Below, one piece after another: positions 20,813 to 56,060 of a stretch of 64,000 nucleotides of DNA (position 1 is the stretch's first letter; the number at the start of each line of letters is the position of its first letter). Source of the stretch: Octopus vulgaris. Its lineage: Eukaryota. The DNA lies in assembly GCA_951406725.2 (NCBI GenBank), contig OX597825.1, positions 75,578,001 to 75,642,000 of the forward strand, in the 5' to 3' direction. The position numbers were made by a program, and so were the translations under genes. The notes under the pieces were generated by a model that was given only the letters and a program-made list of their open reading frames with translations, was not told where the DNA came from and searched no databases.

Positions 20813-21605
20813 ATATATATATATACATATATATGTACAAATATATATATATATATTTATATATATATATATATATATATATATATATATATATATATAT
20901 ATATATATATATATATATATATATATATATATATATATATATATATATATATATATATATATATATATATATATATATATATATATATATATATATATAT
21001 ATATATATATATATATATATATATATATATATATATATATATATATATTAATATATATATATATATATATATATATATATATATATATATATATATATAT
21101 ATATATATATATATATATATATATATATATATATATATATATATATATATATATATATATATATATATATATATATATATATATATATATATATATATAT
21201 ATATATATATATATATATATATATATATATATATATATTTATATATATATATATATATATATATATATATATATATATATATATATATATATATATATAT
21301 ATATATATATATATATATATATATATATATATATATATATATATATATATATATATATATATATATATATATATATATATATATATATATATATATATAT
21401 ATATATATATATATATATATATATATATATATATATATATATATATATATATATATATATATATATATATATATATATATATATATATATATATATATAT
21501 ATATATATATATATATATATATATATATATATATATATATATATATATATATATATATATATATATATATATATATATATATATATATATATTTATATAT
21601 ATATA
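20813..21605. repeat. (TA)n tract
   Basis: Direct reading. Confidence 0.97.
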
Positions 21606-22726
21606 TCCTTAAATCCTTAAATCCTTAAAAATGTTTTAGCCCGAAGGCCGCGGCCATGCTGGGGCACCACCGCTGAATGAGCTACACTAGTTTGTGAATC
21701 CACCTCTGATACGTGGCACTTGATCAACAAGGGAGTTCGATGCTGCTGCCCGCATCCGTGTCTCCTGTCGTGAGGTAGGTTCATCTGGGACTCCCAACAA
21801 GAAGAGATCCAGTTTAGTTTTAAAGAAACCCACATCCACACCATGTAAGTCTCTCAGGCATTTAGGGAAGATGTTAAAGAGCTGTGGTCCTCTGAAACCC
21901 AAGCTGTTGCAGTATCTGGACCTGTATTTTGATGGTGATGTTGGAATCCTTGGCACCACGCAGCGGCGCCCGTTCTGCGGTTGGAGTAACTTTGAATGCC
22001 AAAGTTTGGGACAAGACCCTCCAGGATTTTCCAGATGTATATCACTGCATATCTCTCCCGCCTCCGCTCCAGGGAGAAGAGGTTTAATACCTTCAGTCTT
22101 TCCCAGTAGCTGACATTTTGCATTGAGACGATTTTCTTTGTGTAGCTTCTCTGAGTTGCTTCGAGTTCTGCTGTTTGTTTTATATTGTGTGATGACCAAA
22201 GTTGGGAGCAGTAGTCCAAGCGGCTGAGGACAAATGTTTTCCATAGGACCATCAGTGTCTCCTTCTCTCTTGTTCTGAAAGTTCGGAGAATCCATCCAGC
22301 TAGCCGTCTGCTTTTTATCACCAGATTAGCAATATGCATTTGGAAAGATGCATCATTGCTCATGTCAATGCCCAGGTAACGCACTGATTTTGACTCAGGG
22401 ATTGCAATTCTTCCTGGGCCAGTGTATCCAGTCTTCACGTCATTTACCTTTGTGTGCCAGTAGCGCAGGGCCTGGAACTTACCTGCATTAAACTGCATGT
22501 TGTTGTCCTCAGCCCACCTGTATATTGTGTCCAGCTCATGTTGCAGATGCGCAATATTTTCAGGGTTTTGTATTGCGTGGGAGACTTTTGTGTGATCTGC
22601 ATAGCTAGCAATGGTGGTCATCGTAGCAACTGAAGGCATGTCTGAAAGGGCCACTATGAACATCAGTGGCCCCAAGACAGTGCCCTGTGGGACACCGCTT
22701 GTTATTTGCGTTTCCCTGGAGGTGGG
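21606..22726 (-). mobile_element. LINE family A copy A1 (5'-truncated, (TTTAAGGA)n tail)
   Basis: [14 protein letters not shown] (DD mutated), frameshift ~21970; nearly identical to 3' part of A2. Confidence 0.95.
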
Positions 22727-22900
22727 ATATATATGTATATATATGTATATATATATATATATATATATATATATATATATATATATATATATATATATAT
22801 ATATATATATATATATATATATATATATATATATATATATATATATATATATATATATATATATATATATATATATATATATATATATATATATATATAT
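22727..22900. repeat. (TA)n tract
   Basis: Direct reading. Confidence 0.97.
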
Positions 22901-22903
22901 AAA

Positions 22904-51488: not shown

Positions 51489-51968
51489 ATATATTTATAT
51501 ATATATATATATATATATATATATATATATATATATATATATATATATTTATATTTATATTATATATATATATATATATATATATATATATATATATATA
51601 TATATATATATATATATATATATATATATATATATATATATATATATATATATATATATATATATATATATATATATATATATATATATATATATATATA
51701 TATATATATATATATATATATATATATATATATATATATATATATATATATATATATATATATATATATATATATATATATATATATATATATATATATA
51801 TATATATATATATATATATATATATATATATATATATATATATATATATATATATATATATATATATATATATATATATATATATATATATATATATATA
51901 TATATATATATATATATATATATATATATATATATATATATATATATATATATATATATATATATATA
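51489..51968. repeat. (TA)n tract
   Basis: Direct reading. Confidence 0.97.
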
Positions 51969-54900
51969 TTGATTGATTGATTGATTCTAGTTTCAGCCTA
52001 TGAGCTGTGGCCATGCTGGGGCACCGCCATTTGGTGTTGTTACCTGGTTTCACTTCATGGAGGCTTTCTAGCAACTGCTATTTGGTGCATGAGAGAGTTC
52101 GATGCAGCTGCCCTCATCTGCCCCTCCTGCCGTGAAGTTGGCTCATCCGGGACACCTGACAGGAAGAGATCCAGCTTCATTTTAAAGACATCTGTATCCA
52201 CCCCATGCAGGTCTCTCAGGTTCTTCGGGAGGATATTGAAGAGCTGTGGGCCTCGGAAGCCCAGGCTATCACAGAATCTTGTCCTACATCTTGATGGCAG
52301 GTTTGGAGTCCTAGGCACCACGCAGTGGCGCCCAGTTCTGGCATTTGCGTAACTCTCGATGCCAAAGTTCAGGACACTTCCCTCCAGGATCTTCCAGATG
52401 TATATTATGGCATATCTTTCCCGCCTACGCTCCAGGGAATATAATTTTAATCTCTTGAGTCTTTCCCAGTAGCTTACATTCTGCATAGAGGCTATCTTCT
52501 TTGTGTAGCTTCGTTGGATTGCCTCAAGTTCTGTGATCAACTTGACACTGGATGGTGACCATAGCTGAGAGCAATAGTCAAAGTGGCTTAGGACAAGTGT
52601 CTTCCAGAGGACCATCATGGTTTCTTGTTCTCTTGTTCTAAAGGTTCTAAGAATCCATCCAGCCAGCCGTCTACATTTCATTGTCAGTTTAGCAACATGT
52701 ACATGAAAGGTCGCGTCATCACTCATGTGAATACCCAGGTCATGCACTGATTGTGCCTCTGGGATTGCAATCCCTCCGGGTCCAGTGTATTCATTGGGTA
52801 TTGCATTCAGTTTTGCATGCTGATAGTATAAAGCTTGAAACTTTCCAGCATTGAACTGCATGCTATTCTTTTCAGCCCACTTGTATATTTCGTCCAGCTC
52901 ACATTGCAGGTGTTTAGTGTCCTCAGGGTTCTGTATTGCCTGTGAAACTTTTGTATCATCTGCATAACTTGTGATCGTGGCTCTCTGCGTGGCTGAGGGC
53001 ATGTCTGAGAGGGCCATTATGAACAGTAGTGGTCCCAGAACAGTGCCCTGCGGAACACCGCTCACTATTTGTGTGTTAATGGAGGTGGCCCCATTGGCTA
53101 CTACCACCTGACTTCTATCCTTCAGAAAGTCATGAAGCCATTCTCCCAGTTTTCCAACTATGTTGAGATCACGCAGTTTGTGACATATCATTCCATGATC
53201 GACTTTATCAAAGGCCTTTGCAAAGTCGAGATATATCACTTCCACATTTGAGTGGTTGAGCAGGCGTTTCAGCACCCAGTCATAGTGTTGTAGGAGCTGA
53301 GTTAAACAGCTTCTCCCTGGTCGGAAACCATGTTGGGTGTCGGGCAGCAAGTCATTCTCTTCAAGGAAGGTGATCAGCTTCCTTCTGACTATTCGTTCCA
53401 TGACCTTGCTGATGTGTGAGGTCAGAGAGATAGGTCTATAGTTCTTGGCTTCCGCTCTGCTACCTCCTTTATGAATGGGGCATATTTTACCTTCCTTCAG
53501 TTTTCCTGGAAGTTTGCCAGCTGCAAGGAAGCTCTGAAAGAGGAACTGCAGTGGTCTTGCTAGGACTCTCTTACATGCTTTTAGGAGGATTGCCGGGAAT
53601 CCATCGGGGCCAGTAGCTGAGTCTGTTTTCATTTCATCTATAGCCTTGGTTACATCGTCTTCATTTATATCGATGTAATCTATCGTCGCCGCCTCTGATT
53701 TTATATCTGCAGTGGTAAAAAAGTCAGTTGGATTGGTGATTTGGAGATGCCCAAGGGGTGGAGTGAAAACACTCTTGAATTGCTCATTCAGTATTTCACT
53801 TACCCTCATTGGTTTTCCTGTAAGTGTGCCATCCTTTTCAAGGAGTGGCCCTATTCTACAGTGCACTGTAGCTGTTTCTTTGGCATACCTGTAGAAAGCT
53901 CTGGGGTTAGATTTTATGTTTTCTATAGCCCAGGCTTCTTTGTCTGCTCTTTCCTTTTCATGGGAGAGTTGCAGACATTTTTCGATTTCCAACAGTTTTA
54001 TTTTTAGGCGGGACTTTTCACTGCTTTCAATCTGTTTGTTTAGGCGATTTGAAAATTTCGTACGCCGTCTCATTAAAATTTTCCTCTCTCTGGGGATTTT
54101 GTTCTTGTGTACAGTGGCCTTTCTCTCTGGGACACATTTGTAGCATATGGCTTGCATTACAGACATGAATTGTTGAAGTTTCACGTCGATGTCTGGCGAG
54201 GAGAGACATTCAGGCCAGTTTTGTTTGAGGATCTCTTTCTCAATTTGTTTCCAGTTTGCCTTATGGTAGTTCAAGCTGGAAAGATTTTGAGGGTTTCTTG
54301 TAGGCTGCATGTCCGTGCTCTCTTTTGGCCCGTACATGGTCAGCTCTATCATGTTGTGATCCGAGAGTAGTGTCGGTGTCACTTTCACATTATGGATGAG
54401 ATCCATGTCATTTGTGAAGCAGAGATCCAGTGTGTTACCTGCCCTGGTTGGTTGGAGTATTACCTGCTCCATGTACAGGGTGTTGATGAGGTTCAGGAGG
54501 GACCTCGCCTGTCCTCGTTCACATCTTGTCATTCTTGGGAGAGAAAGGCCCTCGGGCCATCTGACATTGGGCAGATTGAAGTCTCCCATAAGAAGCACAC
54601 CTATGTGTTGTTCTAATGTGGTTAGAATTTCTTCTATTTTTATAAGGCAGTCTTCGAACTTGCCCACATGGCTTGGGGCATCTGGAGGGCGATATGTAGC
54701 ACACACAACTACATCAAGTTGCCTAATATGTACAATTAGTGTGTCACACACCGAGTTTGAGTATGACAAGAGGACCTGGGGTGTGAGGTCCTCACGGATG
54801 TACATAGCAACACCTCCATGACTCCTTTCTTTCCTGTCGGTCCGTAGTACAGCATACTGTGGTATGTGTAACTCCGCATCTGCTATGTCCGGTTTCAGGT

Positions 54901-55029
54901 GCGTTTCTGTAAGTGCTATGCATAAGGCTTGATTGCATGCAACAAAGTCTCTCAGGAACGGGATCTTTGTCCTGTTACTGAGTGTTTGCAGTCCTCTGAT
55001 GTTCAGTAGGAGTATCGAGGTGAGGTGTA
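51969..55029 (-). mobile_element. LINE family B copy B5, near full-length
   Basis: Matches B3 up to about nine codons downstream of the ATG; (ATCA)n tail. Confidence 0.96.
52055..55027 (-). CDS. APE endonuclease plus reverse transcriptase (uninterrupted frame, start codon lost)
   Basis: [63 protein letters not shown] track 916 aa from internal Met. Confidence 0.95.
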
Positions 55030-56060
55030 TATATATATATATATATATATATATATATATATATATATATATATATATATATATATATATATATATATAT
55101 ATATATATATATATATATATATATATATATATATATATATATATATATATATATATATATATATATATATATATATATATATATATATATATATATATAT
55201 ATATATATATATATATATATATATATATATATATATATATATATATATATATATATATATATATATATATATATATATATATATATATATATATATATAT
55301 ATATATATATATATATATATATATATATATATATATATATATATATATATATATATATATATATATATATATATATATATATATATATATATATATATAT
55401 ATATATATATATATATATATATATATATATATATATATATATATATATATATATATTTATATATATATATATATATATATATATATATATATATATATAT
55501 ATATATATATATATATATATATATATATATATATATATATATATATATATATATATATATATATATATATATATATATATATATATATATATATATATAT
55601 ATATATATATATATATATATATATATATATATATATATATATATATATATATATATATATATATATATATATATATATATATATATATATATATATATAT
55701 ATATATATATATATATATATATATATATATATATATATATATATATATATATATATATATATATATATATATATATATATATATATATATATATATATAT
55801 ATATATATATATATATATATATATATATATATATATATATATATATATATATATATATATATATATATATATATATATATATATATATATATATATATAT
55901 ATATATATATATATATATTCATATATATATATATATATATATATATACACATATATGCGTGTATATGTACATGTAGAGGTAGGTACGTACATATATGTTT
56001 ATATATATGCATATGTTCTATTATATTAACATATATATATATATATATATATATATAAAT
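55030..56060. repeat. (TA)n tract with degenerate right end
   Basis: Direct reading. Confidence 0.95.

Follow-up and report, generated by a model that had tools for sequence, protein, structure and literature searches.

Near-pure TA tracts between retroelements at an Octopus vulgaris locus: a possible microsatellite sink

Within a 64,000-nucleotide stretch of the Octopus vulgaris genome (contig OX597825.1, positions 75,578,001–75,642,000; hereafter the window), retroelements lie one after another in nearly pure (TA)n, and this raises the question of where the TA comes from: do the elements find it, or do they build their own target by extending the tracts during integration, as an initial annotation had proposed? 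Between 20813 and 56060, 13 TA tracts account for 10,961 of 35,248 bp, and these are the spacers between 12 non-nested retroelement inserts, namely 10 APE-RT LINE copies and two Penelope-like units (Table 1).

Table 1. Coordinates of the elements, TA tracts and adjoining features in the window.
Feature	Position	Strand	Description
T0, degenerate TA/TG/CA microsatellite	19219–19410	.	6 C, 14 G in 192 bp; target half without further inserts
PLE1, Penelope-like	19407–20812	-	5'-truncated; open frame of 340 codons in which CX4CxxC precedes a GIY-YIG-like motif
T1	20813–21606	.	794 bp; initial ~45 bp degenerate, remainder near-pure
LINE A1	21607–22726	-	5'-truncated; 3' tail of 8-bp units
T2	22727–22901	.	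175 bp
LINE B1	22902–23934	-	Internal piece, ~5% diverged; 3' part absent from window
T3	23935–24656	.	722 bp, 709 pure; flanked by two 5' junctions
LINE C1	24657–26166	+	5'-truncated, frameshifted; 3' tail of 8-bp units
T4	26167–28333	.	2,167 bp; flanked by two 3' ends; TG relic 26385–26470
LINE A2	28334–31014	-	5'-truncated; open RT frame, 795 codons
T5	31015–32507	.	1,493 bp; 12 C, 0 G; 34-bp direct duplication
LINE B2	32508–34684	-	5'-truncated; (AATC)n tail; possible TSD 11–13 bp
T6	34685–34848	.	164 bp
PLEx, decayed Penelope-like 3' piece	34849–35568	+	GIY-YIG-like residues; frameshifted
T7	35569–36692	.	1,124 bp, 948 pure
LINE C2	36693–37164	-	3' 472 bp; possible TSD 31–33 bp
T8	37165–38101	.	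937 bp; flanked by two 5' junctions
LINE B3	38102–40352	+	5'-truncated; possible 28-bp TSD, two interruptions in common, one mismatch
T9	40353–41188	.	836 bp; left end is four direct interrupted units, 26–28 bp
PLE2 unit	41189–46105	+	555-codon RT frame with GIY-YIG-like residues, 42300–43967, between inverted arms
T10	46106–46883	.	778 bp
LINE B4	46884–50211	-	At 3,328 bp the longest copy; APE-RT in a single frame, one homopolymer frameshift common to B2
T11	50212–50467	.	256 bp
LINE B5	50468–51487	-	3' 1,020 bp; possible TSD 15–17 bp
T12	51488–51969	.	482 bp
LINE B6	51970–55027	-	Open APE-RT frame, 990 codons; 5'-truncated, 2-nt TA microhomology
T13	55028–56060	.	1,033 bp; ~890 near-pure, final ~140 degenerate
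Young non-coding element	56061–57016	-	392-bp partial tandem repeat, 1 substitution; hammerhead-like core motifs
Fold-back	57017–57248	.	57017–57116 is an inverted copy (~100 bp) of 57141–57248
T14, TA tract outside cluster	59130–59716	.	587 bp; pure runs 144 and 268

The tracts measure 164–2,167 bp (median 794), with a longest pure TA run of 1,046 bp, close to the 160–2200 bp with pure cores first described; the term 'kilobase-scale' fits the four tracts of at least 1 kb and not the other nine. Even a pure run of 156 bp has an expected count of ~1e-77 under iid composition. The tracts are real as assembled, their lengths being read from the assembly alone. Outside the cluster we counted 20 pure TA runs of at least 12 bp, 18 of which are no longer than 40 bp; the other two both belong to T14, a tract that contradicts the earlier statement that TA outside the cluster stays under ~200 bp. 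Next to the old repeats of positions 1–19218, TA runs reach at most 35 bp.

The claim that such tracts occur only next to young retroelements holds in part. All 13 cluster tracts adjoin at least one copy no more than 1.3% from a sibling or from its own other arm, but not all neighbours are young (B1, PLEx), and T14 has no demonstrably young neighbour: on its right is a sequence with 72–75% identity to its relatives in the window, and on its left a sequence with a hammerhead-like core motif that is single-copy in the window and hence has no sibling for dating. Moreover, all 13 tracts belong to a single nest, and the association therefore counts as one observation (n = 1) at one locus.

LINE families A, B and C are APE-type non-LTR retrotransposons, with an APE endonuclease N-terminal to the RT domain. 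Pfam places PF14529/PF03372 at 36–227 and PF00078 at 518–766 of the B6 protein, and PF00078 in A2 (the scan took in seven proteins, two of them with no family, and left out the C1 and PLEx pieces); in tblastn, family C matches the same proteins. Copies of all three families have common 3' ends, variable 5' truncation, a short 3' tandem tail and no LTR, the 3' end being kept in nine of 10 and lost in B1. All 10 have TA on their flanks, and all sit in the one nest. B2–B6 are mutually 0.27–1.29% distant, with few indels, while B1 stands 4.7–5.1% from B2, B3, B4 and B6. Going by their motifs, these LINEs may belong to the CR1 group; among 111 homologues and the atlas matches there was no labelled CR1 reference, and cluster entries for seven of the 111 yielded Argonauta hians as the only name. 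In cephalopods CR1 is common, with CR1-Zenon reduced or absent (PMC10294476).

The unit at 41189–46105 has the layout of a Penelope-like element (PLE), with inverted pLTRs and a 30–40-bp tail on one side. Its 737-bp arms (41233–41968 and 45369–46105) are 99.7% identical, and an extension of ~40 bp is found on the left end only, with no other copy in the window. We considered a DNA transposon with long TIRs and rejected it, as PLEs are known to combine a one-sided tail with inverted arms; we also set aside the unit as proof of TA growth from TATATA inside a TIR, the absent ~40-bp end being nowhere else in the window. PLE1 and PLE2 are 58% identical. For PLE2 Pfam returned RVT_1 only, and for PLE1 no family; both frames show CX4CxxC and residues like those of GIY-YIG, and among members of the atlas neighbours at 0.97, HTH_animal occurs in 97–100% and GIY-YIG in 28–42%. 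PLEx is presumably Penelope-like, judging by its motif.

How much TA, then, arrives with an insertion? PLE1 is flanked by a direct duplication of ~53 bp (19354–19406 and 20813–20865, 48/53 matches), and the inverted copy at 57017 begins precisely at the young non-coding element's 5' junction, with 6 nt of microhomology (score 161 inverted against 47 direct; maximum of 300 shuffles, 123). Insertion-linked gain is evident at two units of probable Penelope type and suggestive at four of the 10 LINEs (B2, C2, B3, B5), where the flanks can be paired as possible TSDs of 11–33 bp; the flanks of A1 cap its TSD at 8 bp or less. TTT is paired across LINEs at five common sites in four of the 10 copies (permutation p 0.08, or 0.03 without B1; scored by how many copies show it, 0.23 and 0.14). 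The first TTT lies 7–8 nt from the left edge in four of 13 tracts (p ~1e-5), a lead that may point to endonuclease cleavage specificity. At their 3' ends the LINEs join where the tail has 1–3 nt in common with TA, as expected with existing TA as the primer; the RNA tails of families A and B contain no UAU or AUA, and so probably cannot template TA. Every one of the 12 inserts is bounded by TA, and none is split into collinear halves by another. The readable gains are 11–108 bp each, and 12 insertions at 53 + 100 bp would yield ~1.8 kb, less than one fifth of the 10,961 bp.

Nor can the ~11 kb plausibly all have pre-existed. If elements favouring long targets had only divided up one very long tract, the non-nested stack would be directly explained, and T14 reached its length beside no known young neighbour; yet the progenitor would have measured ~11 kb, five times as much as even the largest piece, pure blocks alternate with scattered relic blocks that differ in polarity, and long TA is break-prone (PMC9890227). 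We hold this history to be very unlikely. Still less probable is 3' transduction, by which each 3' end would receive its TA from a read-through transcript that had picked up (UA)n at the donor locus and annealed to the target. The terminal short repeats of the elements do run straight into TA, and the longest tract, T4, is the one with two 3' ends; against this, siblings have no common downstream interruption pattern in the element sense, the tracts between two 5' junctions are 722 and 937 bp long, and two 3'-flanking tracts have just 256 and 482 bp.

A more substantial alternative is that most TA was made during integration, with RT or a repair polymerase stuttering or folding back at staggered nicks to add hundreds of bp per event. 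The young copies beside 13 of 13 tracts agree with it, as do the maize TAFT and Medicago MuTAnT sites, which are richer in TA when filled than when empty, and the fold-back at a young 5' junction, an event that would be invisible in a pure tract. The interruptions argue otherwise. T4 holds 12 G and 1 C, T5 12 C and no G, and A>T interruptions outnumber T>A by 46 to 10 (26 to 6 with clusters collapsed); read along the + strand, 13 of 14 tracts show this excess regardless of element orientation. Since a fold-back copy would have G for C and AAA for TTT, this polarity rules out mirrored copying of the interrupted parts. Informative multi-site repeats in the cluster tracts are in direct orientation, and interrupted units are directly duplicated in T5 (34 bp), T9 (26–28 bp) and T14 (32–63 bp). 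The degenerate mid-tract blocks noted at the outset are indeed present (26385–26470 in T4; C relics at 31414–32029 in T5), and gaps between the T5 relic bases are 131, 46, 244, 72 and 52 bp, against mostly 2–12 bp in the un-expanded tract at 61810–62006; pure runs of up to 244 bp thus lie inside tracts, between relic bases, with no insert. Tracts of 175, 722, 164, 937 and 1033 bp have no LINE 3' end, so priming-phase reiteration is not required, and over the 13 tracts the number of LINE 3' ends had no significant link with length (rho 0.44, p 0.13–0.14). Long inverted matches inside cluster tracts, for example across the 948-bp run, were discounted, as any complementary substitution pair in (TA)n yields one.

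Taken together, polarity, direct duplications, insert-free pure runs and long tracts without a 3' end make repeated slippage a better account than extension by RT or fold-back on a large scale, and with readable gains so small and A and B tails apparently unable to template TA, synthesis at integration seems an unlikely source of most of it. The original proposal of extension during integration therefore survives for the 53-bp duplication and the ~100-bp fold-back, and is disfavoured for the bulk. The pure cores, which are most of the TA, carry no signature that would speak for or against extension there.

Might self-complementary repeats have misled sequencing or consensus building, so that the lengths of the tracts and some of the interruption pattern are artefacts? 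HiFi reads make systematic repeat-count errors in microsatellites (PMC7545148). The + strand excess of A>T, indifferent to element orientation, is absent for the same motif outside the tracts (79 vs 82) and among private changes of the B copies (1 vs 4; Fisher p 0.014), and both the recurrent TTT near left edges and two pure runs of exactly 156 bp fit an artefact. On the other hand, the flanking elements are clean, as the small B2–B6 distances attest, and every tract is short relative to long reads. The G/C relics and TSD-like TTT pairing at four of 10 LINEs also offer a biological route to polarity, through descent from one progenitor tract, and we hold an artefact to be distinctly improbable.

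On balance we think it somewhat probable that the locus is a TA-microsatellite sink, with small gains per insertion and most growth by slippage between insertions. Several unrelated families, three of them APE-RT LINEs ending in short 3' repeats and the others Penelope-like, would nick (apparently by preference) and prime in (TA)n, so that a new copy lands in the spacer beside an older copy, not inside it. Each insertion would split a tract and duplicate some tens of bp of target, at times adding a ~100-bp template-switch copy. Most of the 11 kb would come from direct slippage or stutter repair within pure stretches between insertion events, probably by host polymerases and possibly at nicks without a resulting insertion. 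Longer, purer tracts being larger targets, positive feedback would follow, and occasional breaks at TA may remove element ends, as in B1.

The non-nested, TA-bounded inserts, the relic spacing in T5, the direct duplications, the polarity and the independence of length from junction type support growth by slippage in such a sink, as does the length of T14; in mismatch-repair-deficient cells, too, TA expands without transposons (PMC9890227). Against slippage, the young copy at every tract and the short runs in 1–19218 are equally consistent with integration-time growth, no tract is longer than T4, the only one with a LINE 3' end on both sides, the T5 relic spacing could be older than the insertions, maize TAFT suggests stutter at integration (as summarized in PMC5907723), the pure cores are uninformative, and all comes from one locus. 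We consider it doubtful that octopod LINEs and PLEs go so far as to breed their own landing pad, nicking (TA)n 6–8 nt from TTT/AAA, copying that cue in the TSD and adding hundreds of bp of TA per event by RT template-switching or stutter; if they did, the fold-back at 57017 could be an instance of this process, legible there because the repeat is degenerate.

Transposon-linked TA lengthening is known from plants. In maize TAFT (Wang and Dooner 2006, as cited in PMC5907723), empty sites of 6–8 bp compare with up to (TA)50 per side, and stutter during gap repair was proposed; Medicago MuTAnT has 15 TA repeats per flank against 9 at empty sites (PMC4486113). Both share with the octopus proposal an element that lengthens its own TA target, but through a cut-and-paste transposase, with expansions ~10x smaller and by comparison with empty alleles, whereas the octopus locus is read from the filled allele alone. 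The plant MULE stacks of SaTar (guayule, rice; PMC5907723) and Ac-mMITE (pineapple; PMC8449440) are likewise linear, non-nested arrays of unrelated elements with almost pure (TA)n spacers and deletions that take off element ends; they consist of short DNA transposons, unlike the octopus APE-RT LINEs and Penelope-like inserts of 0.5–4.9 kb, with spacers to 2.2 kb. As the octopus inserts encode RT, they are not Mutator-like DNA transposons, and are akin to the TAFT and SaTar arrays in layout without belonging among them.

Among retroelements, the available part of PMC8557442 gives Neptune and Naiad PLEs a C-terminal GIY-YIG, a CX2-5CxxC linker, an inverted 5' copy framing the unit, a 30–40-bp tail at one end and a microsatellite bias, all apparently present at 41189–46105, where the motif suggests the clade; that part names a (TA)n bias for Naiads and, unlike the case here, describes no target lengthening. 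The non-LTR elements Waldo, Mino, Kibi, Koshi and Dong also insert in simple repeats, with targets ACAY, AC, TC, TTC and TAA rather than TA, and in its accessible portion PMC3812793 describes no target expansion. A retroelement, kilobase version of such lengthening was not found in our limited literature search; the PMC13282606 supplements (octopus repeat families) and Repbase might already record a TA preference for these LINEs. Outside transposons, MSI cancers with WRN dependence offer a parallel in long (TA)n that forms cruciforms, breaks and is expanded by host processes, but the setting there is somatic, mismatch-repair-deficient and transposon-free, and even there the mechanism of expansion is called unknown (PMC9890227).

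Because near-identical inserts would date the 11 kb of TA at this germline locus, comparison of filled and empty alleles could separate integration-time from post-integration growth. Synthesis of TA by RT would be a new TPRT activity and would contribute to the repeat load of cephalopod genomes, and with a self-bred landing pad retroelements would, much like telomerase, supply the germline with fragile repeats of kilobase length; slippage, of more modest interest, would extend the plant DNA-transposon pattern to animal retroelements. Strand-polarised interruptions counsel caution over long-read consensus in TA repeats.

Finally, Rfam at E<=0.5 gave 60 matches, 59 miRNA-family and one snoRNA, all under gathering scores, and no hammerhead for the young element at 56061–57016, whose MFE fold is without the three-way junction. 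A hammerhead core-like motif is nonetheless present in both repeat copies, and the element may be a PLE pLTR or a retrozyme.

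The 13 TA tracts between 20813 and 56060 (794, 175, 722, 2167, 1493, 164, 1124, 937, 836, 778, 256, 482 and 1033 bp) make up 10,961 of 35,248 bp, with uninterrupted TA runs reaching 1,046 bp; a chance origin of the long runs is excluded. The window is AT-rich animal DNA. Two pure runs are both exactly 156 bp long. Outside the cluster, 18 of the 20 pure runs of at least 12 bp are 40 bp or shorter, and the remaining two belong to a single 587-bp tract (T14), whose right neighbour is 72–75% identical to its relatives in the window and whose left neighbour carries no date. The initial annotation had described kilobase-scale tracts occurring only next to young retroelements, with TA elsewhere under about 200 bp. 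All 13 long tracts are present in the assembly, but only four reach 1 kb, and while a young copy adjoins every one of the 13, T14 exceeds the length limit and shows exclusivity to have been overstated. This association is a single observation, because all 13 tracts are fragments of one locus. The TG/CA-containing relic blocks in mid-tract were found where the annotation had placed them.

Self-comparison and translation identified 12 inserts separating the 13 tracts: LINEs of families A (two copies), B (six) and C (two), which may belong to the CR1 group, plus two Penelope-like units. Every insert starts and stops at TA, and none is interrupted by another. Family B encodes APE and RT, the closest named relative of its protein being from Argonauta hians (57%), which points to an octopod as the probable host. 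Copies B2–B6 diverge from each other by 0.27–1.29%, with B1 about 5% away; A1 and A2 differ by six substitutions and one indel over 1.1 kb, and C1 and C2 by four differences in 467 bp. Families A and B are about 75% identical and keep a common 3' UTR motif, while their tandem tails differ. A one-base homopolymer frameshift common to B2 and B4 is absent from B3 and B6; the two copies may stem from one defective donor, or the sequencing may have erred systematically at this site.

Coordinates of features in the window
Feature	Position	Remark
Penelope-like element PLE1	19407-20812	left flank of cluster
Penelope-like unit PLE2	41189-46105	within cluster
Penelope-type element	56061-57016	right flank of cluster
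Penelope-type piece	from 57344 on	right flank of cluster
Inverted copy	57017-57116	of 57141-57248
Tract T14	59130-59716	outside cluster
Un-expanded TA tract	61810-62006	outside cluster
Pure TA runs, 156 bp	22746-22901, 34693-34848
Tracts with left-edge TTT	26167, 34685, 37165, 51488	left edges
Family A 3' ends	21607-21680, 28334-28400	compared with B 3' ends
Frameshift	~34250, ~48633	B2, B4
Two-interruption motif	~26305, ~36653	near C 3' ends
Hammerhead-like core motifs	58758-58779, 59074-59097, 56361-56402, 56925-56966	near Penelope-type pieces
Decayed RT-like frames	7802-9280, 15146-17328, 62357-63891	older
Older repeat family	10029-11047, 59711-60646, 5178-5374	72-76% identity

Gains linked to integration are legible in degenerate stretches of the repeat. 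A direct duplication of 53 bp brackets PLE1 (48 of 53 positions match); the left half of the element's target is still 192 bp and degenerate, and the right half leads into near-pure TA about 750 bp long. On the other side of the cluster, a ~100-bp inverted copy of degenerate microsatellite begins right at the point where the 5' end of a young Penelope-type element (one substitution in 392 bp) joins its flank, scoring 161 versus 47 for a direct copy and a maximum of 123 in 300 unit shuffles, and the last 6 nt of the element match the template just past the copied arm (6-nt microhomology). Such a copy marks a fold-back or template switch at the junction, for which either the RT or a repair polymerase may be responsible. 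Among the LINEs, 4 of 10 are bordered on each side by a TTT interruption, as would fit target duplications of 11–33 bp; permutation support for the pairing is weak (shared sites p = 0.08, or 0.03 without B1; by copies 0.23, or 0.14 without B1). At 53 + 100 bp for each of 12 inserts, such gains would come to about 1.8 kb, or 17% of the TA. The earlier suggestion that integration extends the tracts is supported only for small additions, such as the 100-bp-scale fold-back.

Fold-back copying mirrors interruptions, yet tract T5 holds 12 C and no G, and T4 holds 12 G and one C; on the + strand, A>T interruptions number 46 versus 10 T>A (26 versus 6 after collapsing), with an A>T excess in 13 of 14 tracts. 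Inside the cluster, the informative multi-site repeats of the tracts run in direct orientation (34 bp in T5, 26–28 bp in T9). In T5 as much as 244 bp separates one relic base from the next without any insert between them, compared with gaps of mostly 2–12 bp in an un-expanded tract; one extension at a junction cannot produce the T5 spacing, which may predate the inserts. The only tract between two LINE 3' ends is the longest, but tract length has no significant link with the number of such ends (rho 0.44, p = 0.13), and tracts lacking them measure 175, 722, 164, 937 and 1033 bp. The 3' junctions sit where element tails share 1–3 nt with TA, which fits priming of synthesis by TA already in place, and we infer that a UAU able to template TA by reiteration occurs in the C tail only. 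Pure TA cores carry no signature for or against extension during integration. We consider it unlikely that the bulk of the TA was synthesised at integration, and similarly doubtful that filled alleles gain hundreds of base pairs of TA in this way. That an 11-kb TA tract existed beforehand, into which the inserts simply fell, appears very improbable, and delivery of the TA by read-through transduction marginally more so. Near both family C 3' ends lies the same + strand two-interruption motif, in an orientation opposite to that of the elements.

The interruptions also bear on data quality. The TTT bias is limited to the tracts (the same motif outside, 79 versus 82; private changes in B copies, 1 versus 4), and the + strand A>T excess disregards element orientation across the long tracts from 20813 to 59716. 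In 4 of 13 tracts the first TTT lies 7–8 nt from the left edge (p ~1e-5); this TTT may have served as a cue for nicking that target duplications then copied, or it may be a consensus artefact. Either all the tracts descend from a single progenitor, with nicks positioned relative to this interruption, or the consensus is biased. Systematic repeat-count errors of HiFi reads in microsatellites are reported in a section of PMC7545148, and the flanking elements here are themselves clean in sequence; an artefactual origin of the tract lengths and part of the pattern seems to us quite improbable.

We somewhat favour a mechanism in which several retroelement families would target (TA)n, each insertion splitting a tract and adding tens to about 100 bp, after which slippage or stutter repair would regrow the pieces and the lengthened tracts would attract more insertions. 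Part of PMC9890227 deals with expansion of TA by the host and with the fragility of cruciforms. Plant MULEs form non-nested arrays with TA spacers (passages of PMC5907723 and PMC8449440); for maize TAFT, as cited in the former, the target reportedly grows from 6–8 bp to (TA)50, attributed to stutter in gap repair, and an excerpt of PMC4486113 gives MuTAnT 15 repeats per flank versus 9 at empty sites. The nest is real and striking, a larger-scale retroelement variant of this known TA-targeting, target-lengthening pattern. The LINE targets listed in a portion of the review PMC3812793 are ACAY, AC, TC, TTC and TAA, with TA not among them. An Octopus vulgaris annotation (PMC13282606) reports 13 recently active CR1 and 31 Penelope-like families as well as hotspots of TEs; TA targeting goes unmentioned in the parts examined, and in the literature outside subscription journals and Repbase we found no report of cephalopod TA-targeting LINEs or kilobase TA spacers. 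Background on 3' repeats, on molluscan CR1 and on retrozymes comes from sections of PMC13295347, PMC11481361, PMC10294476 and bioRxiv 10.64898/2026.07.22.740005.

Further Penelope-type pieces flank the cluster on both sides, so the nest is wider than first delimited. PLE2 (4.9 kb) has 737-bp inverted arms, 99.7% identical, and only one of its ends is extended, by ~40 bp, the same layout as that of the Penelope-like elements described in part of PMC8557442. For its RT frame, GIY-YIG is present in 28–42% of members of the top two atlas neighbour clusters. The arms of this young unit hold five 44-bp tandem units, and a 1.3-kb TG-rich degenerate repeat lies inside it. Hammerhead-like core motifs, with no Rfam match, occur near the Penelope-type pieces. 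Outside the cluster are older, decayed RT-like frames and an older repeat family whose internal repeats (66/131/138 bp) are degenerate and which carries short runs of TA or TATC on one side.
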